A stretch of 64,000 nucleotides of DNA from Alphaproteobacteria bacterium (GTDB taxonomy: Bacteria > Pseudomonadota > Alphaproteobacteria > Acetobacterales > Acetobacteraceae). The notes under the pieces are model-generated. The model was not told where the DNA came from, searched no databases, and saw nothing but the letters and a program-made list of their open reading frames with translations. The DNA lies in NCBI GenBank assembly GCA_020850755.1, contig JADZEB010000025.1, positions 9,546-73,545 of the forward strand, in the 5' to 3' direction. Within the stretch, counting starts at the first letter, position 1, and every line of letters begins with the position of its first letter. A program made the position numbers and the translations under genes. Positions 683 to 11,539 of this stretch are shown here, piece after piece.

Positions 683-1594
683 CTAGGCCGCCTCGCGAAG
701 GTCGGGCCTGACCTGGCGGCCGAGCGCATGCGCGATCCGGTCGAGATCACGCATAAGCCGCGAGAAGGCGGCATAGTCGATCGCCTGCAGCGGATCCACC
801 GCCGCCCTCGCCGGCTCGGGATGCACTTCCAGCATCACCCCGTCGGCGCCCGCCGCGACCGACGCTAGCGCCAGCGGCGCGACCCACTCGCGCCAGAAGG
901 TCGCGTGCGAGGGATCGGTGATGACCGGCAGGTGCGTCACCTCGCGCGCCGCCGGCACCACCTGCAGATCGAGCAGGAAGCGCGAGGTGGCGCGGTGCGT
1001 GTGCGGGGCGCTGATGCCGCGCTCGCACAGCACGACATTGTGGTTGCCCTCGACCATGATGTACTCCGCCGCGCCCAGCCAGTCGCGCAGCGACGCGCCG
1101 AAATGCCGCTTGAGCAGGATTGGCTTGCCCGTGCGCGCCGCCGCCGTGAGCAGCGGGTAGTTCTGCATGTTGCGCGCGCCGATCTGGACCATGTCGGCAA
1201 CCGCGCACACACCCGGAAGCTGCGCCTCGCTCATCACCTCGGTGACGACGAGAAGTCCGGTCTCGGCGCGTGCCTCGGCCAGCCAGCCAAGCGCCTCGGC
1301 GCCCGGCTCGAAATAGCTCGCGCTGCGATAGGGGAAGGTCAGCGGCTTGAAGGCACCGCCGCGCAGGAGGCTCGCGCCATGTGCCTTGGCCGTGCGCGCG
1401 ATATCCAGGATCAGCGCGCGGCTTTCGACCGTGTTCGGTCCCGCCATCACCGGCAACGTCTCGGCACCGAAGGCAACGCCGCCCACCTCGACGATGCTGC
1501 GATGGCCGGGATGTTTCGCCGCCGCGAGCGGGAACTTCGAGCGCATATCCTCCGCCGTGATGTCCTTGCCCGGCGCGGCATTCTCGATGGTCAT
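683..1594 (-). CDS. DAHP synthase / KDO8P synthase family (class I-beta-like) PEP-utilising aldolase, divergent active-site motifs
   Basis: 303-aa ORF with ATG start. Family motifs are LRGGAFKP, VQIGARNMQNYPLL, KPILLKR, AAEYI..GN..VVLCERGI, ITDPSH, GADGVMLEVHPEP. Atypical features are GPNTVES where metallo-enzymes have GPC..ES, and KPLT instead of KPRT. Confidence 0.7.
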   Translation of the reverse strand: MTIENAAPGKDITAEDMRSKFPLAAAKHPGHRSIVEVGGVAFGAETLPVMAGPNTVESRALILDIARTAKAHGASLLRGGAFKPLTFPYRSASYFEPGAEALGWLAEARAETGLLVVTEVMSEAQLPGVCAVADMVQIGARNMQNYPLLTAAARTGKPILLKRHFGASLRDWLGAAEYIMVEGNHNVVLCERGISAPHTHRATSRFLLDLQVVPAAREVTHLPVITDPSHATFWREWVAPLALASVAAGADGVMLEVHPEPARAAVDPLQAIDYAAFSRLMRDLDRIAHALGRQVRPDLREAA

Positions 1595-1600
1595 TGCGCG

Positions 1601-2746
1601 TCAGCCCTCCATGTATGCCGGTCGATGGTCCGGTGCGGTCTCCGGCGCGGCGGGATCGATGCCGAGCCGCGCCGAATGCGCCCGCTCGGCCAGCGTGACC
1701 CAAGCGCCGCGCTCCATGCTGGCGTAGAGCGCGTGCAGCAGTTGCAGCGACTTCGCCGCCTCGGCCACGGACACCGGCACGAGCGCCGGATCGCGCGCGC
1801 GCACCGCTGCCAGCATCGCGCGCAGGCAGCCGAGATGGCCGTTGCCATAGCCGTCGCGCACGACCTCGGAATGGGCGGCGCAGGCGGCATCGTCGGACGG
1901 ATCGCGTGCTGCCGGCTCCCACGCCTCCAGGCGGTTAAGCCCGACGCCGCCCACCCGCGCATAGGCGCCCTCGCCGACGATGGTCAGCGCCGCCTCGTGG
2001 TCCTGCGGGCGCGCCGCGGTGGTGGCCTCGATCGTGCCCATGGCACCCGAGGCGAAGCGCAGCACCGCCACGGCGGTGTCCTCGGCTTCCAGCCGGTTGA
2101 CGCGTGCCGCGCCATGCGCGCACACGGCCGCCACCGGCCCCATCAGCCATTGCAGCGCGTCGAGATGGTGGATCGCCTGCTGCGCCAGCACCCCGCCATC
2201 GAGCCGCCAGGTGCCGTGCCAGCCATCCTCGTAATAGGGCTGGCGGCGGCACCAGTGGACGCGCACCGAGCCGAGCACGGCGCGCCCGAAGCGCCCGCCA
2301 TCGATCGCCGCGCGCAGGAAGCGCAGCGGCGCGTTGAAGCGGTTCTGCTTGACCACGCCGAGCAGCGCGCCCACCCGCGCGGCCGCCTGCGCCATGCGCG
2401 TCGCGTCATCCGGGCGCAGGCAGACCGGCTTCTCCACCAGTACGGAGAGGCCCGCCTCGAGCAGCGCGTTGGCGTGGCCGGCATGGTTGCCGCTCTCGGT
2501 CAGCACGCAGACAAGGTCGGGGGCGTGCGCCGCAAGCCCGGCCATCTCCGCCACCGCCGCGCAGCCGAACTGTGCGACGAAGGGCGCCATGCGCTCGGGC
2601 CGGCGGTCGCACACGGCGACGAGCTCGGCCTCGGCGGCGAGCGCGCCTGCCAGGAGCTCGCGATAGCGCTGCGCGACGCGCCCGCAGCCGAGCAAGGCAA
2701 TACGCACGCGCGGGCCTGGCATGGGATCGAGCGGATCACGCGGCAT
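1601..2746 (-). CDS. Gfo/Idh/MocA family NAD(P)-dependent sugar oxidoreductase
   Basis: N-terminal Rossmann RIALLGCGRVAQRY, then the EKP motif (VLVEKPV) and a C-terminal alpha/beta domain. I chose start ATG 2746 because GGAGG lies 6 nt upstream. The longer ORF-track start 2872 would run through the upstream gene. Confidence 0.75.
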   Translation of the reverse strand: MPRDPLDPMPGPRVRIALLGCGRVAQRYRELLAGALAAEAELVAVCDRRPERMAPFVAQFGCAAVAEMAGLAAHAPDLVCVLTESGNHAGHANALLEAGLSVLVEKPVCLRPDDATRMAQAAARVGALLGVVKQNRFNAPLRFLRAAIDGGRFGRAVLGSVRVHWCRRQPYYEDGWHGTWRLDGGVLAQQAIHHLDALQWLMGPVAAVCAHGAARVNRLEAEDTAVAVLRFASGAMGTIEATTAARPQDHEAALTIVGEGAYARVGGVGLNRLEAWEPAARDPSDDAACAAHSEVVRDGYGNGHLGCLRAMLAAVRARDPALVPVSVAEAAKSLQLLHALYASMERGAWVTLAERAHSARLGIDPAAPETAPDHRPAYMEG

Positions 2747-3890
2747 GTCGCACCTCCGTGCTGGTGCGCGCAGCCGGACGCAGCGCCGGGTGCGGGCGGC
2801 CCCAGGCCAGTGCGCGATAGAGCGATGCGTGCAGGCTCGCGGTGCGCGCCGGATCGAACAGGGCCTCGACACGCCGGCGCGCGCGCGCGATCAGCGCCAC
2901 GCGCCCCAGCCCGGCGGTGGTGGCGCGGCGCAGCGCGGCAGCGAGCGCCCCGGCATCGCCCTGCGCCGCGAGATGGCCCTCGACCCCATCGGCGATCAGC
3001 TCGGCAGTGCCAGGCAGCCGCGATGCGACCACCGGCACGCCGAGCGCCATCGCTTCCACCGCCGCGAGCGGCAATCCCTCCCAGCGCGAGGGCAGCAGCA
3101 ACGCGCCGGCCCCGGCCAGCTTCGCGAGCAGGGTCTCGCGCGGCAGCGTGCCCAGCATCTCGATCCGGTCGGCGAGGCCCGCGCGCGCCGCCGCGCGCCG
3201 GAAGGCGGGGCCGAGGGGTCCGTCGCCGATCACCCGCATCCGGTAGCCGTCGCGGGCGAGACAGCCCAGCACCTCGATCGCCAGGAGCGGGTTCTTCTGC
3301 TCGACCAGCCGCCCGACGAAGGCGATCAGCCGCAGGTCGGGCACCCCGGCCGCCGGCAACGCGGGAAGTCCGATCGCGGCATGGCACACCGCCTGGGGTG
3401 TGGCGGCAGGCACGAGGCGCCAACAGCGCGCGATCGCGGCATCGGCGGCGCAGCAGAAGATCACGCCGGCGGCGGCACGCCCGATCGCGGCCTCGGCCAG
3501 CGCGCCGAGATGGCGCGTGCCCGCAGACTTCCCGGTGAAATGGTAGCCATGCACCGAATAGAGCATCGGCACCCGCAGGCGCAGGCGCGCGCCCAGCATC
3601 GCGAAGGCGGCGCGCCCGCCATGCGCATGCAGCAGCGCAGGCCGCAGCCCGTGCAGGCGGCGCGCGAGCGAGAGGGCGAGTGCGGGATCGAAGCGGCTGC
3701 GGAAGAAGCGCGCCGGGTGCACGATCACGCCCATGCGGGCCGCCTCGGCCGCGAGGTGCGAGTCCGCTTCTGTGAGCAGATGCGTCTCGATGCCGGCCTC
3801 GCGCGAGAGGCCCGCGAACAGCGCGAGCAGGTGCGTGGTGCAGCCGCCCGCCGCCCCGTCGGCCACCGCATGCAGGATGCGCAGCGTCAT
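2736..3890 (-). CDS. Glycosyltransferase, GT-B fold, GT4-like
   Basis: 384 aa. C-terminal signature LLLPSRWEGLPLAAVEAMALGVPVVAS..G..ELI (the E-x7-E region) is typical of GT4 retaining glycosyltransferases. The ATGA overlap at 3887-3890 couples it to the upstream gene. Confidence 0.8.
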   Translation of the reverse strand: MTLRILHAVADGAAGGCTTHLLALFAGLSREAGIETHLLTEADSHLAAEAARMGVIVHPARFFRSRFDPALALSLARRLHGLRPALLHAHGGRAAFAMLGARLRLRVPMLYSVHGYHFTGKSAGTRHLGALAEAAIGRAAAGVIFCCAADAAIARCWRLVPAATPQAVCHAAIGLPALPAAGVPDLRLIAFVGRLVEQKNPLLAIEVLGCLARDGYRMRVIGDGPLGPAFRRAAARAGLADRIEMLGTLPRETLLAKLAGAGALLLPSRWEGLPLAAVEAMALGVPVVASRLPGTAELIADGVEGHLAAQGDAGALAAALRRATTAGLGRVALIARARRRVEALFDPARTASLHASLYRALAWGRPHPALRPAARTSTEVRHAA

Positions 3891-4615
3891 GCCCCGCCTC
3901 CCGGCGCGGGGGCGCGCCGGTTGACGATGAAGCTCTTGCCGTGCCAGCCGAACAGGTGCCAGTCGACCAGCGCGATCCCGGGATGCGCGGCACGGAACTC
4001 GGCCAGCGCACGCTGCTCGCCGCGCGTCGCATCGCCCGCGAAGCAGAAATAGTCGTCGAAGCAGAGCACGGTGCCGGTTTGCAGATAGGGCACTAGCCAG
4101 GCCAGCGCATCGCGCGTGGATTCATAGAGGTCGCAGTCGATGAACACGAGCGCGGCGCGGCGCAGCGAAAGGCGCATGCGCAGGCCCTCGGTCAGGCTGT
4201 CGCGATAGAAGCCCGGCACGGCGGTGTAGCGCTCGCGCGGCACGCCCAGCGCGCGGGCGGCCTGCTCGAAGGTGGGCAAGTCCATCGCGAACTGGCCGCG
4301 CGCGAAGGTGCTGCCGGCATCGGGGCCGCGCGGATCGGGCAGACCGGCGAAGGAGTCGAACACATAGAGATGCCAGGGCAGCGCGAAGCGCCGCGCCACC
4401 TTCCAGGCCGCGGCGAAGCTGCGCGCGCGGCAGCAGCCGAATTCGAGATAGTCGCCCGCGATGCGGTTGGTGTGGATGAACTCCGCCGCCAGCCGGATCA
4501 TCGGCGCATAGGCGTGGTTGGAGCGCGCCGCCTGCGCCCGCTCGACCAGCCGGGCGAATCCCTGCCAGGCAGGGCGCACCGCACGGCGCCAGAGCGGAGC
4601 GGCGATCGCGCTCAT
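3887..4615 (-). CDS. TylF/MycF-like (macrocin O-methyltransferase family) SAM-dependent sugar O-methyltransferase
   Basis: 242 aa. GDYLEFGCCRARS (SAM loop), VFDSFAGLP and VFIDCDLYESTRDAL (metal-binding D-x-D-x-Y-E-S) resemble the TylF family. ATGA overlap with the upstream gene at 4612-4615. Confidence 0.7.
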   Translation of the reverse strand: MSAIAAPLWRRAVRPAWQGFARLVERAQAARSNHAYAPMIRLAAEFIHTNRIAGDYLEFGCCRARSFAAAWKVARRFALPWHLYVFDSFAGLPDPRGPDAGSTFARGQFAMDLPTFEQAARALGVPRERYTAVPGFYRDSLTEGLRMRLSLRRAALVFIDCDLYESTRDALAWLVPYLQTGTVLCFDDYFCFAGDATRGEQRALAEFRAAHPGIALVDWHLFGWHGKSFIVNRRAPAPGGGA

Positions 4616-5826
4616 GGCATCGCCGCCTCGGCAGCATGTGCCGGTTCGCGCGCAAGCAGGTCGTCATAGCCAAGCAGCCGGGCGCCGCAGTCGAGATAGG
4701 GCCCGGCCTGGCGGCGCACATCCTCCTCCCAGGCGGAGGCGATCAGCACGATGCGCGGCCGCAGGCGGCGTAGCATCCCCGGCGGCAGCACCGGATTGCC
4801 GGTCACGGCCAGGCGCTTGCCATGGTTGCGCGGATTGGGATCGACGCATGGCATCGCGGCATCGAAACCGCCGTCGATCGCATACTGCGTGGCGATCGCC
4901 CCGCTGCCCCAGAGGGCGATCCCGCCTGCGGCGGCGAGCGCGCGCAGGGCACGGCGATAGCGCGCGAAGCCCTGGGCGAAGCGCGCCAGCATCTCGGCCT
5001 GTGCCGCGTCATCCATCGCGGGCCGCACGACGGGCACGCTGCCGCCCGGCACGCGGCGGGCGAAGGCACACAGGAACGGGAAGCGCATGGGGCCGAACGC
5101 ATTCTCGATCCGCACGGCGTCGCCAAGCTCCGCCCCGCGCAGGCAGGCAAGCAGGCTCGCCGGCGCGAAGTAGCTCAGATGGTCGGCGTGGAACTCGGGC
5201 AGATAGCCGGCCGAGAGCGACCACTGGCTGTTCGGCACCTCGACATAGGCGAGCCCGCCCGGCGCCAGCAGCCGCGCCGCGTCGGCGAGGAAGTCGAGCG
5301 GTGCCGGCACATGCTCGAGCACGTGGCGGAGCACGATGGCATCGAAGCGCTCGGCGCCGAAGTCATCGGCGCGGAACGGCCGCAGATGCATCTCGATGCC
5401 GAACTCCTGCGCCCGCAACGCGACCGGCGACGGCTCCACCCCTGTCACGCGCAGGCCGCGATCGCGCAGCCGGAGCAGGAAACTGCCATCGAATGCGCCG
5501 ATCTCCAGCACGCGCGCCCCGCGCGGCAACTCGGTGGCGATGCGCGCGGCAACCGCATCGTTCCACGCAACCTGCGAGGGCGAGAGGGCGGGCGGTGTCT
5601 TGCCCTCATAGGCGGCGCCATAGAGGCGCGCGAGCAGGGGCTCGACCGGCCCGGCAAGATCGAGATGGCCCGAGACATGCCCGGTGCCGGGATCGCAGAC
5701 GAGGTCCATCGGCGCGACCGCATCGGGCGCCGGTGCGGCCGCGGGCTTGTTCGCGAGCGCGATCGCCGGCAGCCGCAGGAAGGGCACCAGCATCCGGCCA
5801 GTCAGGCGGCAGGGCAACCTGGTCAT
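4612..5826 (-). CDS. Class I SAM methyltransferase with C-terminal NDP-hexose C-methyltransferase-type domain (TylCIII-like)
   Basis: SAM loop VLEIGAFDGSFL and acidic loop RVTGVEPS, followed by RHVLEHVP..FL. The C-terminal block IALWGSGAIATQY..VDPNPRNHGKRLAVTGNPVLPP...IVLIASAWEEDV resembles the C-methyltransferase C-terminal domain. Start ATG 5826 gives an ATGA overlap with the upstream stop. The ORF-track N-terminus (to 6171) is Arg-rich junk overlapping the upstream gene. Confidence 0.65.
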   Translation of the reverse strand: MTRLPCRLTGRMLVPFLRLPAIALANKPAAAPAPDAVAPMDLVCDPGTGHVSGHLDLAGPVEPLLARLYGAAYEGKTPPALSPSQVAWNDAVAARIATELPRGARVLEIGAFDGSFLLRLRDRGLRVTGVEPSPVALRAQEFGIEMHLRPFRADDFGAERFDAIVLRHVLEHVPAPLDFLADAARLLAPGGLAYVEVPNSQWSLSAGYLPEFHADHLSYFAPASLLACLRGAELGDAVRIENAFGPMRFPFLCAFARRVPGGSVPVVRPAMDDAAQAEMLARFAQGFARYRRALRALAAAGGIALWGSGAIATQYAIDGGFDAAMPCVDPNPRNHGKRLAVTGNPVLPPGMLRRLRPRIVLIASAWEEDVRRQAGPYLDCGARLLGYDDLLAREPAHAAEAAMP

Positions 5827-7052
5827 GTCGCCTCGCGCGGATGCGGCAGCGCCGGCGCTGCGATCGCGCGGCCCGCGCCGGGACGCACCATGCGCAGCAA
5901 TGTGCGGTCTAGCCGCCGCCCGATCCGCTCGTGCCAGCGCCGCCAGCCGGACTGGTAGAGACGCCATTGCGCGCCGACCTCGGCACCGCCCGCGCCCGGC
6001 GGCCCGCCGACAGCGTGATCGGTACGATCGGCGACCCTGCCGCTGTCGAGCGCGGCGGCCACGCGCAGCCACACCGCATCGACCGAGGGCGCGGGGTGGG
6101 CGAGATAGTGCATCGGCGTGCCCATCATGTTCTGCCGCCGTGTCTCGGGCTCGGCCGAGGCATGGCCCCATTCGATCGTCGGCACGCCGAAGCCGAGCAT
6201 CACCAGCATCGCGCCCGAAAGCCCGCCCACCGCGAACCGGCAGCGCCGCGCCGCCGCCACCTGCAGGCCGAGCCGGCGCTCGTCGGGCACATGGATCAGG
6301 TCGATGGCACCGTGCGGCACCTCGCCTTCGGCGAACCAGCAGCCGCCCGGCTCGCCGATCACCACGACGCGCGGGCGTAACGGATGTTCGAGCAGCCGCG
6401 CGATGAGGTCGTGGTAGTTCTCCTCGGGCCAGTTCTTGTCCGGCCTGCGCCCGGTGCGCCGCCGCGGCAGCACGGCGACCGCCGGCCGGTCGCCCGCGAA
6501 CAGATCCGGCGCAATCGAGGACAGCATGTCCTCGTCGGCCGGATCGGTCTCGATCGGTCTCCAGAGCTGCACCTCGGGCTCGATGCGCAGGGTCACCGGC
6601 GCGGGCGAGAACCGTCCAAGCGGCGAGAACCAGGTGCCCCAGCTTCGCGCGGGATCGAACAGGCAGGTGAACAGGCCCGCCGGCGCCAGCGCCCTCCTGA
6701 ACGGCCCGACCTCGGCACGGTAGTAGGCGAGCAGCCGCTCATGATGCAGCGCCACGCAGCGCGCATAGGACGCACCGTCCGGTATGGCCGGCCAGTCGCC
6801 GAACCACTGGTCGCAAACATAGGCGTTGGCGGAGAGCCGCAGCTCGCGGAACCAGTCGGGATGCGCATGCACAGTGACGCCCCGGCCATAGAGCGGCGCG
6901 CGGCCCGGAAAGCTCGCGACATGGATGTCGTAGTCGCCAGCGGCTTCGGCGGCGAAGCGGCGGACATAGCCGGCGAAGAAGGACTGCTCCCAGCCGAACT
7001 CGCCGACGAAGGGACCGAACAGGATGGCGGGCTTGCGGGCCATGCGGCGCAC
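5823..7052 (-). CDS. Putative glycosyltransferase, GT9 (heptosyltransferase)-like GT-B fold; otherwise uncharacterised
   Basis: 409 aa. The weak resemblance to GT9 rests on RRPDKNWPEENYHDLIARLLE..PRVVVIGEPG and LQVAAARRCRFAVGGLSGAMLVMLGFGVPTI (compare K.WP...vvl.G and DSG..HlAaa.G.P). The start is ambiguous between GTG 7052 and ATG 7043, and neither has a clear SD. Confidence 0.4.
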   Translation of the reverse strand: MRRMARKPAILFGPFVGEFGWEQSFFAGYVRRFAAEAAGDYDIHVASFPGRAPLYGRGVTVHAHPDWFRELRLSANAYVCDQWFGDWPAIPDGASYARCVALHHERLLAYYRAEVGPFRRALAPAGLFTCLFDPARSWGTWFSPLGRFSPAPVTLRIEPEVQLWRPIETDPADEDMLSSIAPDLFAGDRPAVAVLPRRRTGRRPDKNWPEENYHDLIARLLEHPLRPRVVVIGEPGGCWFAEGEVPHGAIDLIHVPDERRLGLQVAAARRCRFAVGGLSGAMLVMLGFGVPTIEWGHASAEPETRRQNMMGTPMHYLAHPAPSVDAVWLRVAAALDSGRVADRTDHAVGGPPGAGGAEVGAQWRLYQSGWRRWHERIGRRLDRTLLRMVRPGAGRAIAAPALPHPREAT

Positions 7053-7057
7053 CGGGG

Positions 7058-8665
7058 CTAGAGGATCGCGCGCACGAAGCGCAGGAGGGCGGCGCGCGAG
7101 AGCGCCTCGCGATTGCCGACGATGGTGCAGGCGATCGCGCCGGCCGCCGCCGCGAGCAGGGCGGCCGCGATTCCGCGCAGCCGCGCCGCCCGGCAGAGAG
7201 TCAGCATCGCCAGCACCGCGTCGCCGGCGCCGACCGGATCGACGATCCGCGTGGCGAGCGCCGGCACGGCAGTGACGCCGCCTGCCTCGCCGAGGCCGAG
7301 GCCATGCCGCCCACGCGTGACGACCAGTTCGCGGCAGCCGAGCCGCGCGCCCAGCACAGGCCAGAGCGCGGCGAACTCCCCCTCGCGGCAGCCGACGGCA
7401 AGCCGGGCTTCGAGCTCGTCGATGCAGACCAGATCGGCGCCGCGATAGCGCGTCACCAGGTTGAAGCCGAAATTGGTGGAGTTGGTCTGCACGTTGAGCG
7501 CAACAAAGGGCAATGCCGGGCGCAGCGCGGCCCAGGCTTCGGGCCCCAGCAGGCCGTGGCCGAAATCGGCCCAGATCACCGCGTCGGCATGCGCGAGAGC
7601 CGCCGGCGGGCGGTCCACGACCTGGACCATGAAGGCGCGCGCGGCGGCGGCACCGTCATCGAGATGGGCGAGCTCGAACAGCTTCTGCGGCCGCTCATCC
7701 GTGCCCGCCCGATCCCCCGGCGGCGCGCCGGGGTTGAGCACGTTCGGATAGCCGCTGGCAAGATAACGGATCTTGTGCGGCGTGGTGCCATCCGGCACGA
7801 CCACCCAGTCCGCTCGCACATTGGCGGGCAGGCTCTCGGCCATCAGCGCATCGAAGCGCCAGTTGCGCTCGCCCCTCTGGGCGATCAGCGTCACCTCGCG
7901 CGCGAAGGCCCCCACATGGCGCGCGATCGCCGCCGCCCCGCCTGCCATCAGCTCCGTCCCGCGCCAGAGCGCGGATATGGCCGGCGATTTCGACGTCGTG
8001 CCGACCGGCGTGCAGGACAAGTATTCGTCCACGATCACATCGCCGCAGACACCGACCGAGAGCGCGGCGAAGCGATCTCCTATGATCTCCTCGATCTCGT
8101 CGCGCGAGGTCTCGCGCCGCACCCGGTCGAGGAAGGCGTGCGTCTCGGGCGGCAGGTCGAGCAGCCTGAAGGATCGCATCAGCGCGGATGATGAGTGCTT
8201 TTCGGTATCGGTAATGACCAGCCGCCCGCCATGCGTCTCGACCGCGGCCCGCTCGGACGCGAGCGCGGCATCGGCCTCGCCGGCAAGCGCCGCCGCATAG
8301 TCCGGGCCCTTGAAGTAGCAGTCGGGGCGAACGAGCGCGATCGCGCCGATAGCGGTCGCTTCCGCGGCGATGAACACCGCATCGACCGGTTCGAGCGCGG
8401 CGAGGAAGCCTGCCCGCGTCTCGGCATCGAACAATGGCCGGCCCGGCCCCTTGGCGATGAAGGCATCCGCCGTGAGCGAAACCACAAGGCAATCCACCTC
8501 GGCGCGGGCGGCGGCGAAATGCGCCAGATGCCCCGGATGGACGAGATCGAAGCAGCCATGGCAGAGCCCGATCCGCGCCCCTTGCGCGCGGCGGGCGGCA
8601 AGGTAGGCTTGCAGCCCCGCGGCATCGAACCGCTTGGCCGCGCGGCGCCGGCTGATCGCGTTCAT
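7058..8665 (-). CDS. Bifunctional nucleotidyltransferase / PfkB-family sugar kinase (HldE/RfaE-like, domains in reversed order)
   Basis: 535 aa. The N-terminus IGLCHGCFDLVHPGHLAHFAAAR..DCLVVSLTAD...RPLF..E.R is a cytidylyltransferase-fold HxGH motif like RfaE domain II. The C-terminal ~330 aa form a ribokinase/PfkB fold ending in DPVGAGDAVLA (the DxxGAGD anion hole). Confidence 0.75.
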   Translation of the reverse strand: MNAISRRRAAKRFDAAGLQAYLAARRAQGARIGLCHGCFDLVHPGHLAHFAAARAEVDCLVVSLTADAFIAKGPGRPLFDAETRAGFLAALEPVDAVFIAAEATAIGAIALVRPDCYFKGPDYAAALAGEADAALASERAAVETHGGRLVITDTEKHSSSALMRSFRLLDLPPETHAFLDRVRRETSRDEIEEIIGDRFAALSVGVCGDVIVDEYLSCTPVGTTSKSPAISALWRGTELMAGGAAAIARHVGAFAREVTLIAQRGERNWRFDALMAESLPANVRADWVVVPDGTTPHKIRYLASGYPNVLNPGAPPGDRAGTDERPQKLFELAHLDDGAAAARAFMVQVVDRPPAALAHADAVIWADFGHGLLGPEAWAALRPALPFVALNVQTNSTNFGFNLVTRYRGADLVCIDELEARLAVGCREGEFAALWPVLGARLGCRELVVTRGRHGLGLGEAGGVTAVPALATRIVDPVGAGDAVLAMLTLCRAARLRGIAAALLAAAAGAIACTIVGNREALSRAALLRFVRAIL

Positions 8666-8692: not shown

Positions 8693-9601
8693 CTAGAGGT
8701 TGCCCGCCGCCACCGCATGGCGGAGATCGATCCAGGGTCGCCAGGCAAGCAGGCTGGCCGCCTTGCGCGTGTCGGCGTGCGTGATGCGCGCCTCGCCCGG
8801 TCGCTCGGGCGCATGGTCCCACTCGCTCGAGAACAGGCGCGCGACGTCCTTCACGCTGAATGTGTCGCCGGTGCCGATGTTGAACACGTCGTCCTCGATG
8901 TCATAGGCCTCCATCGCGTTCAGGTTGGCGCGCGCCACATCGCGCACATGCACGAAGTCGCGCCGCTGCTCGCCATCTCCGGTCACGGTCAGGCGCTCGC
9001 CCTTGCGGCTCTTGTGGTGGAAGATGCCGACCACCGAGCTGTAGGCGTTGAAGGGACTCTCCGCGGCATAGCTGCGCGGGCCGAACACGTTGAAGTAGCG
9101 CAGCGCCACGACCGTGATGCCCAGCCGGGGCCCAAGCAGCATCGCGTAGCGCTCGGCGCCGTATTTCTGCAGCGCATAGGGGCTGAGCGGGTCGATCGGC
9201 GCCGTTTCCGGCGTGGGCAGCACGGCCGGCGTGCCATAGACCGCCGAGGAGGAGGACAGCACCAGGCGCTTGATGCCGGTCGCGCGCATCGCCTGCATCA
9301 CATGCACGGTGGCGCGCACATTGGCATCGTCATGCCCGATCGGATCGGCGAAGGAGGGCTGGATGCGCGGCAGGGCCGCAAGGTGGAACACGCCCGCCGC
9401 CCCCTCCATCGCCGCGGCCAGCGCCGTGCTTGGCGATCGCGCGAGGTCGTGGCGCAGCACGCAGACATCGTTGGGCAGGTTCTCGCGCCGGCCGGTGGAG
9501 AAATTGTCCACGACCACCACCTTGTGGTCGGCCTCGCGGAGAAGCTCGACCACATGCGAACCGATGAAGCCGGCCCCGCCGGTAACGACATACTTCGCCA
9601 T
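8693..9601 (-). CDS. NAD-dependent sugar-nucleotide epimerase/dehydratase (extended SDR, GalE/HldD-like)
   Basis: MAKYVVTGGAGFIGSHVV (the GxxGxxG motif), SSSAVYG, and the catalytic YxxxK in YALQKYGAE. Start ATG 9601 has GGGGAG upstream. The ORF-track start 9790 would overlap the upstream gene. Confidence 0.8.
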   Translation of the reverse strand: MAKYVVTGGAGFIGSHVVELLREADHKVVVVDNFSTGRRENLPNDVCVLRHDLARSPSTALAAAMEGAAGVFHLAALPRIQPSFADPIGHDDANVRATVHVMQAMRATGIKRLVLSSSSAVYGTPAVLPTPETAPIDPLSPYALQKYGAERYAMLLGPRLGITVVALRYFNVFGPRSYAAESPFNAYSSVVGIFHHKSRKGERLTVTGDGEQRRDFVHVRDVARANLNAMEAYDIEDDVFNIGTGDTFSVKDVARLFSSEWDHAPERPGEARITHADTRKAASLLAWRPWIDLRHAVAAGNL

Positions 9602-9635: not shown

Positions 9636-10763
9636 TCACGCCGCCGCGCGCGCGCGGCCGAGCACGGCCTCGGCCACGTCGAGCGCATCGCGGATGGCGT
9701 CTGGAATGCCCTTGTACTGGAACGAGCCATGCCGCCCGATCGAGTGGAAATCGGCCGGGAACATCGCCTGGTACTGGGCGAAGCGTGCACGCTCGACCGC
9801 CGACTGCACCGGGTAGTAGCGCGAGGTCTCGTTCGGGAGCTCGATCCCGATCAGCGTGTGCGGCGAGGCGTGGCCGGTGATCTTCTTGAACTCGGTCACG
9901 CGCGTATAGGGCTCGTCGCCCGAGTAGTGGACCCAGGCGATGCCCTCCGGCAGTGCCTGGGCGACCGGCAGGACGAGCGGGATGAAGCTGCGCCCGGAAT
10001 AGCGCAGCCGGCCATAGGTGAAGCCGAACAGCGCATCGACCGGCAGGGTGTTGACGATGACATCGGCGGCCAGCACCCCGGCGCTGGTGTGGACCTCGCG
10101 GCGGGCGGAGTCGAATCGCGTCACCCGGGTCGAGGGCAGGAAGCGGGTGCCGGCGAGCGCCTTGGCGAAGAACCCGTTATAGCCGTCGGGCGCTTCCGGG
10201 TAGCCCTGGAACTGGTCCTGATAGAGGCGGACATCGCCCTCGCGAATGGGCGTGCCGCGATTGACCCACTCCCAGTTGGCGGCCAGGGCGCGGTTGGACT
10301 CGACCCCCCACATCTTGCGCGAGTAGCGATCGACGAACTTGCGGTAAAGGGTGGGGCCGATGGCATCCAGCCAGTAGGCCTCGAAATCCTCGGCGCGCGG
10401 GCGGCGGGCGCGGCAGGCGGCCAGCTCGGCCTCGATCGCGGCCGCGTCCGGCATGCGCGGGATGTCCGCGCCCTGCAATGGATAGTTGTAGAAGGCGCCG
10501 TCGGCGGCGACATAGGTCCAGGAGATCGTGTCGAAGCGGCGGATCGGCGTGAGCGCGGTCAGGGTGGCGATCACCGCCTCGTCGCGCGAGAAGAAGACGC
10601 GCGGGCCGAAGGTGTAGGGGTGGCCGCCATACCAGGCGGTACGGCAGCCACCCCCAGGCTCGGCGGCGGCCTCCAGGACCGTGGTCTCGAACCGATCCTT
10701 GAGCAGATGGGCGACGGTGCTCCCCGCAAACCCCGCGCCCAAGACTAGAAGCCGCTTTGCCAC
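9636..10763 (-). CDS. UDP-galactopyranose mutase-like FAD-dependent pyranose/furanose mutase
   Basis: The dinucleotide fold KRLLVLGAGFAGSTVA..L, then GGHPYTFGPRVFF, YSRKMWG and GRHGSFQYKGIPDAIRDA resemble the Glf family. I prefer GTG 10763, which has AGGGGGA 6 nt upstream, over the ORF-track GTG 10802, which sits inside the predicted -10 region. Confidence 0.7.
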   Translation of the reverse strand: MAKRLLVLGAGFAGSTVAHLLKDRFETTVLEAAAEPGGGCRTAWYGGHPYTFGPRVFFSRDEAVIATLTALTPIRRFDTISWTYVAADGAFYNYPLQGADIPRMPDAAAIEAELAACRARRPRAEDFEAYWLDAIGPTLYRKFVDRYSRKMWGVESNRALAANWEWVNRGTPIREGDVRLYQDQFQGYPEAPDGYNGFFAKALAGTRFLPSTRVTRFDSARREVHTSAGVLAADVIVNTLPVDALFGFTYGRLRYSGRSFIPLVLPVAQALPEGIAWVHYSGDEPYTRVTEFKKITGHASPHTLIGIELPNETSRYYPVQSAVERARFAQYQAMFPADFHSIGRHGSFQYKGIPDAIRDALDVAEAVLGRARAAA

Positions 10764-10885: not shown

Positions 10886-11485
10886 TCATACGATTAACAA
10901 TCGTTCCTCGAGTAGTTCGAGAATCGCGTGTCCAACCACCATATGTAGTTCCTGCACCCGTGCCGTCTCATCTGATGGGACAACCAGCGCAATGTCGCAC
11001 AGCGCCCGCGCGGGGCCACCATTGCCGCCCAGAAGCCCGACTGTGACAATTCCGGTCGCGCGGGCCATCTTGAGCGCCTCGATCACATTGGCCGAGCGGC
11101 CAGAGGTGGTCAGGGCGATCAGCAGGTCCCCCGCGCGACCCAGCCCCGAAAGTGGGCGGGCGAACACCTGGTCGAAACCGAAATCATTGCCCGCGGCCGA
11201 GAGCGCCGTCGCATCGCCCCCCAGCACCACCGCCGGCAGCGATCGCCTTACAACCTTTGCGCGAAGCCGGATCAGCAGTTCGGTGGCCAGATGCTGCGCA
11301 TCCGCGGCCGAGCCGCCATTGCCGCAGAAGAAGATCGTGCCCCCGGCGCGCAGGCTACGCTCGGCTGCGCCGAGGATACCGAGCAGACGGTCCTCCTGCT
11401 CGGCAAAGAGCTGCGCCGTCAGCCGCGCCGCCTCGGCACCGATCTGCTTCAGCCGCGCCCGCTCGCTCGCCTGCCCGTCGCCCAT
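10886..11485 (-). CDS. gmhA: Phosphoheptose isomerase (sedoheptulose-7-phosphate isomerase), SIS domain
   Basis: FFCGNGGSAADAQHLATEL, ...ALTTSGRSANVIEAL, ...GLLGGNGG, ...VPSDETARVQELHMVVGH are classic GmhA/SIS motifs. ATG 11485 has AGGAG 10 nt upstream. The ORF-track start 11509 is a TTG. Confidence 0.8.
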   Translation of the reverse strand: MGDGQASERARLKQIGAEAARLTAQLFAEQEDRLLGILGAAERSLRAGGTIFFCGNGGSAADAQHLATELLIRLRAKVVRRSLPAVVLGGDATALSAAGNDFGFDQVFARPLSGLGRAGDLLIALTTSGRSANVIEALKMARATGIVTVGLLGGNGGPARALCDIALVVPSDETARVQELHMVVGHAILELLEERLLIV

Positions 11486-11539
11486 GCCCCGCGCGCTCCT
11501 GAACCACAAGCCAGACGCCCCTGCCCCCGCCGAGACGGG

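Follow-up and report, generated by a model that had tools for sequence, protein, structure and literature searches.

The window analysed here is a stretch of 64,000 nucleotides from an alphaproteobacterium of the Acetobacteraceae (assembly GCA_020850755.1, contig JADZEB010000025.1, positions 9,546 to 73,545 of the forward strand). Near its left end, the minus strand encodes a protein of 303 residues, referred to below as the aldolase, which would commonly be named a DAHP synthase (DAHP is 3-deoxy-D-arabino-heptulosonic acid 7-phosphate). Sequence and tree place it in a widespread, monophyletic offshoot of the type I-beta DAHP synthases, in which the cysteine of the metal site is replaced by asparagine and the site that receives the sugar is rebuilt. 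Its gene belongs to a recurrent cassette of sugar-nucleotide genes, and the genome encodes separate enzymes for the housekeeping reactions. The aldolase is probably a metal-independent enzyme that condenses phosphoenolpyruvate (PEP) with an aldose, giving a 3-deoxy-2-ulosonic acid other than DAHP, which would then be activated with cytidine monophosphate (CMP) for use in a surface glycan. It is a new functional variant inside a known enzyme superfamily.

Fold and altered residues of the aldolase

683..1594 (minus strand): DAHP-synthase-like PEP aldolase, KPL/HTH clade, Asn type, 303 aa; assigned from profile hidden Markov models (HMMs), alignment and tree.

The gene begins with an ATG, 12 nt downstream of a GGAGG. 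Its start lies 6 nt past the stop codon of the upstream gene, and 3 nt separate its own stop from the start of the downstream gene. The protein scores 177.8 bits against the Pfam model DAHP_synth_1 and 284 bits against NCBIfam TIGR01361, the type I-beta DAHP synthase model, whose cut-off is 267.75. By comparison, models of KDO8P synthases (KDO8P is 3-deoxy-D-manno-octulosonic acid 8-phosphate) give only 87-90 bits (86.6 for TIGR01362, with a membership cut-off of 314). The Pfam NeuB model (PF03102) gives 19.3 bits, under its cut-off of 22.1, and no stretch of the protein passes. The AlphaFold model of the aldolase has a mean predicted local distance difference test score (pLDDT) of 91.4 and superposes on the DAHP synthase of A. 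pernix (1VS1) with template-modelling (TM) scores of 0.82/0.92 and a root-mean-square deviation of 1.9 Å; 1VS1, 1RZM and 1ZCO are the top Foldseek matches. The class I-beta scaffold that the first-pass annotation had recognised from the motifs LRGGAFKP, QIGARNMQN, LCERGI, DPSH and EVHPEP is thus borne out, each of these motifs being present together with GPNTVES, KPLTF and RFLLD.

Residue correspondences were taken from HMMER alignments to solved DAHP synthases (P. furiosus 1ZCO/4C1K and A. pernix 1VS1), to which the aldolase is 45-48% identical; the posterior marks are high on both sides of the sites discussed. Asn54 (codon AAC, window 1433-1435) aligns with the Cys of AGPCS(I/V)ES, Leu85 (codon CTG, window 1340-1342) with the Arg of KPRTS, and Phe87 with the Ser of the same loop. 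The first-pass annotation had read the Cys-to-Asn and Arg-to-Leu changes by eye and had proposed a careful alignment as a check; in that alignment both residues still fall on the Cys and Arg positions. Its remark that Asn is atypical of DAHP synthases also holds, Cys being found in all 171 canonical relatives aligned. Following GGAFKPLTFPY (canonical GGAFKPRTSPY), the aldolase carries a three-residue insertion, R90-S-A. A second one appears in the HMMER alignment where CERGIS-APHTHR-ATSRFLLD runs over CERGIRTFE---TATRFTLD. Further on, DPSHATFW aligns with DPSHPAGR, and VDPLQ with SD(S/A)xQ. The marks of the protein are therefore Asn54, the loop K83-P-L85-T-F87, the inserted R90-S-x, the inserted P-H198-T-H200-R201, RFL207LD, DPSH230-AT-F233-W234, E256 and V266-D267-P268. 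As for the RFLLD motif, which had been contrasted with RNTLD, the change is real, but its Asn-to-Phe part is nothing special, since the P. furiosus enzyme reads RFTLD; it was dropped as a diagnostic mark, and the clade-specific substitution is Thr207 to Leu.

The published roles of these residues give the changes their meaning. Type I-beta DAHP synthases use four metal ligands, a Cys, a His, a Glu and an Asp (PMC6362186). In the aldolase, H230, E256 and D267 are retained and the Cys is Asn54. In the complex of the T. maritima enzyme, erythrose 4-phosphate (E4P) is bound by the Arg and Thr of KPRT (PMC6362186); the aldolase reads KPLTF, and Leu occupies the Arg position in 100% of its Asn clade, as against Arg in 97% of the 171 canonical sequences. 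Because the Cys ligand and the KPR(T/S) loop are both missing, the aldolase should not be filed as a DAHP synthase. The PEP side is conserved: the Arg and Lys of LRGGAFK, equivalent to R78 and K83, bind PEP in type I-beta enzymes (PMC6362186), and R78, K83, R141, K162, R192, H230, E256 and D267 show little or no variation in the clade and the canonical enzymes.

All reported DAHP synthases are metalloenzymes (PMC6362186, PMC6435475). A Cys-to-Asn exchange is the defining switch of the metal-independent half of the KDO8P synthases (PMC3052366). Since Asn replaces the metal-ligand Cys here, the same switch as in that family, the aldolase is probably metal-independent. With KDO8P synthase (KdsA) it shares superfamily, proposed reaction type, a natural Cys/Asn dichotomy at the same site and the retained His, Glu and Asp (PMC3052366), and its product is likewise proposed to be CMP-activated for a glycan. 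On the other hand, it is only 23-29% identical to KdsA, stands apart from it on a separate long branch, and reads KPLTF where KdsA has the KANRS loop that binds the phosphate of arabinose 5-phosphate. The Asn is thus a shared feature and no proof of KdsA membership. With the type I-beta DAHP synthases (1VS1, 1ZCO/4C1K and the core of T. maritima 1RZM), identity is 44-48%, and the likeness extends to the (beta/alpha)8 fold, the Arg/Lys set for PEP and the His, Glu and Asp at the metal; both also have the N-terminal hairpin region and a core-only build. The aldolase differs from them in that RxTLD, DPSHxxG and SDG have become RFLLD, DPSHATFW and VDP, in the PHTH insertion between beta6 and alpha6, and in the company of its gene, which sits in glycan cassettes and not among aro genes.

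The KPL/HTH clade

The clade was named after its two hallmark loops, KP(L/A)(T/S)F and a three-residue HTH insertion after CERG. In a search of 5.8 billion proteins, the 120 best homologues spanning the motifs were examined. All 120 read GPN and 119 read KPL(T/S)F, the KPL pattern being unmatched in just one; the aligned clade members, 59 of 59, likewise combine Asn with KPL(T/S)F. Fixed in this way in homologues and clade members, the changes are due neither to chance nor to sequencing error. In a library clustered at 50% identity, scores drop from more than 300 bits straight to about 260, where the canonical KPRTS enzymes begin. Among named genomes three classes are cleanly apart: an Asn type with GPN, KPL(T/S)F, PHTH, RFLLD and DPSHATFW (380-431 bits), a Cys type with the same KPL and PHTH marks (310-349 bits), and the canonical enzymes (at most 265 bits).

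A careful maximum-likelihood tree rooted on nine KdsA sequences supports the KPL/HTH clade (100/98), its Asn subclade (100/99) and the union of the Asn clade with a Cys-type sister group (100/89). The window aldolase falls inside the Asn subclade. On this tree the Cys forms are basal, and a single exchange between Cys and Asn together with a single acquisition of the KPL/HTH state is enough; Cys is ancestral in the clade, and Asn arose once. In a quick tree, the window aldolase is the earliest branch of the Asn subclade, and phyla are mixed, Prochlorococcus being grouped with Pelagibacter, and Actinomycetota and Acidobacteriota standing among Proteobacteria. The branch that parts the KDO8P synthases from the DAHP synthase I-beta radiation containing the aldolase has a support of 100 and a length of 2.16.

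Judging from the Cys-type sequences, the remodelling looks stepwise. KP(L/A)TF and the HTH insertion are found in the basal Cys members, in which Phe233 and the R-S-x insertion are missing. In the Cys sister group, only Asn is missing from the set of marks, and Glu256 is replaced: this metal ligand is Asp in 7 of 7 of its sequences (L040-L044; Acidobacteriota, Gemmatimonadaceae and Nitrospiraceae). A NeuB-type synthase is encoded in every one of these sister loci, and two separate CTP_transf_3 genes in most.

Clade-specific positions were defined as those at least 90% conserved in the Asn clade and differing from a canonical residue that is itself 60-100% conserved. They comprise C54N, R85L, S87F, the gained R90, F94Y, G96E, T168S, E171D, E198H, the gained H200 and R201, T204S, N206F, T207L, G233F, S266V and G268P. 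Arg90, His198 and His200 are invariant gains in the clade, and Arg201 in the Asn group. The changed positions appear to lie in the beta2-alpha2, beta6-alpha6, beta7 and beta8 loops, on the acceptor side of the barrel. Together they are predicted to remove the canonical clamp on the phosphate, to add hydrophobic bulk and to bring in new residues that are basic or His. No paper describing a DAHP-synthase-like enzyme with Asn or KPL, or the cassette, was found in the searchable literature. The public name of the clade members seen is always "3-deoxy-7-phosphoheptulonate synthase".

The gene cassette and its probable product

The aldolase gene is flanked by two genes that recur with it in other genomes, and a third lies left of the window on the same contig (L004 denotes this locus, in contig positions):

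2..679 (minus strand): shikimate dehydrogenase (SDH)-like reductase, first 226 codons, translationally coupled to the aldolase.
1601..2746 (minus strand): WlbA-type Gfo/Idh/MocA dehydrogenase (Gfo), 381 aa from the ATG at 2746.
L004 8007-8750 (minus strand), left of the window: protein resembling glycosyltransferases of family 2 (GT2-like), unfused in the window genome.

Neighbours within 9 kb were assigned by their best hit to the window genome's own proteins. Near 36 Asn-type genes, the SDH-like gene was found 31 times, Gfo 30, a CMP-transferase 28 and the GT2-like gene 25, almost always adjacent and on the same strand; near 41 canonical DAHP synthase loci, the corresponding counts are 6, 0, 0 and 0. 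The usual order is CMP-transferase, GT2-like, Gfo, aldolase, SDH-like. In the window genome the linkage is kept, in the order WlbA-like, aldolase, SDH-like, GT2-like, CMP-transferase. Typical neighbours of the cassette are polysaccharide genes, for a flippase, family 4 glycosyltransferases (GT4), sulfotransferases, NeuB and a DegT aminotransferase; out of 43 loci, 13 have a NeuB-type gene beside it and 8 a DegT aminotransferase.

Enzymes of alpha-hydroxy acids recur beside the cassette of other genomes as well: a LarA-like racemase domain (L012 8676-10004, plus strand), a D-2-hydroxyacid dehydrogenase (L046 5921-6862, plus strand) and an alpha-hydroxy-acid dehydrogenase dependent on flavin mononucleotide (L023 14673-15698, plus strand). 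They may serve in sugar-acid tailoring or in the synthesis of an acyl substituent.

Each partner protein can be related to a known family. Gfo is most closely related to WlbA of B. pertussis and of C. violaceum, which are C3'' dehydrogenases of nucleotide sugars: it scores 226 bits to 3Q2K and 212 bits to 3Q2I of the Protein Data Bank (PDB), whereas the next family reaches 72. When its model (pLDDT 92.8) was searched with Foldseek, "WlbA ... with NADH and UDP-GlcNAcA" came first (TM 0.83/0.91). WlbA and WbpB, to which Gfo is about 38-45% identical over its full length, oxidise C-3'' of a uridine diphosphate (UDP) sugar (PMC10622841). Unlike in the ManNAc3NAcA pathway of WlbA, the aminotransferase, acetyltransferase and epimerase (WlbC, WlbB and WlbD) are absent from the cassette. 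The full SDH-like gene encodes 329 aa and extends past the left window end (L004 9235-10224). Its product retains the catalytic Lys, Asn, Asp and Gln motifs and has the N-terminal carboxylate loop P-S-x-G-A-R-S-P; the 5-ketofructose reductase 7COK, which is among its best PDB matches, provides a precedent for an SDH-family enzyme acting on a keto-sugar. The GT2-like protein reads S-A-H in place of the D-C-D metal motif of chondroitin synthase, and S-x-H-C is invariant in 31 cassette copies; in most other genomes it is part of a fusion protein of about 450 aa, with a second cytidylyltransferase-like domain that matches CTP_transf_3 weakly. It may be a CMP-sugar transferase or a sugar-nucleotide hydrolase. 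The cytidylyltransferase is nearest to PseF and NeuA, with 123 bits to PseF and 110 bits to the NeuA of the PDB.

The housekeeping reactions are assigned to other genes. On contig 51, the window genome encodes a class II DAHP synthase that scores 705 bits. Its kdsA is of the metal type, reading GPCQIES and KANRTS, and stands as usual between pyrG and eno; its aroE is canonical (215 bits). The search for a second DAHP synthase and a kdsA suggested in the first-pass annotation therefore found both, and the aldolase is not the only protein of DAHP synthase type. A class II or class I-alpha DAHP synthase is also present in the six other carriers checked (Prochlorococcus MIT 9302, Pelagibacter HTCC9565, Denitromonas, two Azospirillum and Magnetofaba), so that seven of seven carriers, with the window genome, have a canonical enzyme. 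No ortholog of the aldolase was found in 40 related genomes, 24 of them from the same family. The presence of other DAHP synthases, the lack of orthologs in relatives and the mixing of phyla in the tree together indicate an accessory gene that moves horizontally.

The idea of a PEP-aldose condensation with a non-canonical acceptor, apart from aromatic biosynthesis, is thus supported by the glycan context, the rebuilt acceptor site and the separate DAHP synthase. In the pathway that can be proposed, the aldolase would condense PEP with an aldehyde sugar to a 3-deoxy-2-ulosonic acid. Because the acceptor site is rebuilt, the product would not be DAHP destined for aromatics, nor the acceptor canonically bound E4P. 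The cassette would build this acidic sugar, tailor it (most simply by an epimerisation that oxidises and then reduces) and activate it with CMP; the surrounding operon, with its GT4, phosphoglycosyl transferase, methyltransferases and heptose genes, would put it into a surface glycan. Two orders of the steps can be envisaged. In the first, resembling the Neu, Pse and Leg pathways, the WlbA-like enzyme would oxidise a UDP-sugar at C-3'' and the free sugar would be released, possibly by the GT2-like protein, which lacks the DxD motif, acting as a hydrolase; reduction by the SDH-like enzyme, condensation with PEP and CMP activation would follow. The acceptor would then be non-phosphorylated, which would explain both the lost Arg and the lack of a phosphatase in the cassette. 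Alternatively, condensation and CMP activation would come first, followed by an oxidise-and-reduce epimerisation at C-4 of the ulosonic acid. This carbon corresponds to C-3'' in an aldose nucleotide; relative to the carboxylate it is meta, as C-3 is in dehydroshikimate. NeuB, PseI and LegI systems share with the proposed pathway the sequence of sugar-nucleotide modification, PEP condensation with an aldose and CMP activation (hydrolases NeuC/PseG, transferases NeuA/PseF). NeuB nevertheless belongs to an unrelated sequence family, with an antifreeze-like domain that the aldolase lacks, and the WlbA-like, SDH-like and DxD-less GT2 partners differ from those of the Neu, Pse and Leg pathways.

Several observations weigh against this proposal. 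The new R90, H198 and H200, to which the Asn group adds R201, could hold a differently placed anionic group of the acceptor, such as a phosphate or the carboxylate of a uronate, and E4P or another sugar phosphate could be accommodated in a shifted register. The NCBI equivalog-domain model for DAHP synthases scores the aldolase above its cut-off. Finally, A. halopraeferens carries the aldolase gene alone, and Magnetofaba, Magnetovibrio and a metagenome-assembled genome (MAG) of Thiotrichaceae have only the pair of aldolase and SDH-like genes. Since some carriers lack parts of the cassette, its five genes do not form an obligatory unit.

Other readings have to be weighed on the same data. The enzyme might be a genuine DAHP synthase using PEP and E4P, either in an extra shikimate-type branch with its AroE-like neighbour or for a glycan containing 3-deoxy-arabino-heptulosonic acid. 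Its best family match above the NCBIfam cut-off, its 45-48% identity to solved DAHP synthases, the adjoining gene of the shikimate dehydrogenase family and the chance that the new Arg and His re-create a phosphate site would fit such an enzyme. It is nonetheless unlikely. Throughout the clade, Leu replaces the Arg that binds the phosphate of E4P, and Phe the Ser beside it. Neither dehydroquinate synthase nor dehydratase is encoded in the cassette, in which a sugar-nucleotide dehydrogenase of WlbA type and a CMP-sugar synthetase are the constant companions of the aldolase, and all seven genomes checked already have a canonical enzyme. A second enzyme of KDO8P synthase type, condensing PEP with arabinose 5-phosphate to supply Kdo for a capsule, is still less probable. 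Extra copies of kdsA, kpsF and kpsU do occur in group 2 capsule loci. For the aldolase, such a role would accord with the Asn typical of non-metallo KDO8P synthases (PMC3052366), the CMP-transferase of the cassette and the SIS-domain isomerases of its own cluster. It is opposed by the position within the DAHP synthase I-beta radiation, far from the KDO8P synthases, by KPLTF instead of KANRS and the low scores against the KDO8P synthase models, by SIS proteins that are of GmhA type, not KdsD/KpsF, and are absent from other cassettes, and by a CMP-transferase that is PseF/NeuA-like and not KdsB-like.

It can also be asked whether the cassette makes a soluble small molecule, such as a secondary metabolite, an osmolyte or a cofactor-like acid, and not a building block of a glycan. 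The solitary gene of A. halopraeferens points that way, as do carriers (L007) in which the pair of aldolase and SDH-like genes lies by a PhyH dioxygenase and a methyltransferase, with no glycosyltransferase near. We regard this as improbable, to about the same degree as a genuine DAHP synthase, given that a CMP-sugar synthetase and the GT2-like gene are adjacent in most loci, that the neighbours are typically polysaccharide genes, and that the window operon encodes GT4, GT2, a phosphoglycosyl transferase and heptose enzymes. Least plausible of all is that the aldolase has decayed into a paralogue without catalysis. One metal ligand and one Arg for substrate binding are indeed lost, but the mean column identity is 79% among 20 members from several phyla, with every PEP-site and catalytic residue invariant, the frame is intact, the gene is translationally coupled and its model is confident. 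For heptulosaric acid (Dha) as a product, the searchable literature gave only papers on plant rhamnogalacturonan II, without biosynthetic genes.

The preferred reading, a metal-independent PEP-aldose condensation for a surface glycan, leaves room for more specific forms. Heptose-activation genes in the window operon allow, and do not show, a heptose-derived acceptor. A more far-reaching form, which we consider possible though rather doubtful, would make the clade a third lineage of ulosonic-acid synthases for glycans, evolved independently of the KdsA and NeuB lineages. With the WlbA-type dehydrogenase, the SDH-like reductase and the DxD-less GT2-like protein, a common UDP-sugar would be converted to a rare aldose, free and without phosphate; this would be condensed with PEP, without metal, to a chemically undescribed higher ulosonic acid, C9 if the acceptor is hexose-derived and C10 if it is heptose-derived, and then CMP-activated. 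Untargeted surveys of CMP-sugars have begun to turn up higher ulosonic acids without assignment (preprint 10.64898/2026.04.20.719630), and the SugarBase preprint reports unassigned CMP-C10 ulosonic acids in Magnetospirillum, naming no genes of this kind.

These assignments matter beyond the window genome. Where the metabolism of SAR11, Prochlorococcus, SAR86, Azospirillum and many MAGs is reconstructed, a probable enzyme of glycan synthesis is counted as a shikimate isozyme, and its SDH-like partner is likewise counted as AroE. Surface sugars of abundant marine bacteria matter for recognition by phages and grazers. The sugar acid is probably one chemically undescribed so far. If the more far-reaching form is right, some of the commonest bacteria of the ocean (SAR11, Prochlorococcus, SAR86) carry an unrecognised surface sugar, and within the DAHP synthase lineage the aldolase would be the first enzyme naturally independent of a metal. 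A natural Cys-to-Asn form within that lineage, with Cys-type sisters for comparison, would amount to a second, independent replay of the metal switch of the KDO8P synthases.

Surroundings of the cassette in the window

Upstream of Gfo, the minus strand of the window continues with the following genes, which belong to the operon context and not to the conserved cassette:

2736..3890 (minus strand): GT4 glycosyltransferase.
3887..4615 (minus strand): TylF/Methyltransf_24-type O-methyltransferase.
4612..5826 (minus strand): class I S-adenosylmethionine-dependent methyltransferase; likely start ATG at 5826, overlapping the stop of the upstream gene.
5823..7052 (minus strand): 409-aa protein with no Pfam or NCBIfam match.
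7058..8665 (minus strand): HldE-like bifunctional protein, nucleotidyltransferase domain followed by PfkB kinase (heptose activation).
8693..9601 (minus strand): GalE-like epimerase/dehydratase of the short-chain dehydrogenase/reductase (SDR) family, probable start at MAKYVVTGGAGFIG.
9636..10763 (minus strand): UDP-galactopyranose-mutase-like (Glf-like) flavoenzyme.
10886..11509 (minus strand): GmhA-like sedoheptulose-7-phosphate isomerase.

Read along the minus strand, the order is gmhA-like, Glf-like, SDR, HldE-like, 409-aa protein, the two methyltransferases, GT4, Gfo, aldolase and SDH-like. Left of the window, the same contig encodes the GT2-like protein, the PseF-like cytidylyltransferase, a second GmhA-like protein, a phosphoglycosyl transferase and an exporter of ATP-binding cassette (ABC) and HlyD type.

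The two GmhA-like genes of the cluster (window 10886-11509 and L004 6587-7675) score 158 and 114 bits, with NCBIfam equivalog cut-offs of 209; the open reading frame listed at L004 6587-7675 (minus strand) has an over-extended N-terminus. In the HldE-like protein, the domain order is opposite to that of E. coli HldE, with a cytidylyltransferase-like domain at residues 35-162 and the PfkB kinase at 407-520. One relative of the 409-aa protein, 35% identical, is encoded by a Planctomycetia MAG at its cassette locus (L039). An ABC transporter with a C39 peptidase and an adaptor of HlyD type follow the glycan genes immediately downstream on the same strand (L004 1625-5553, minus strand).

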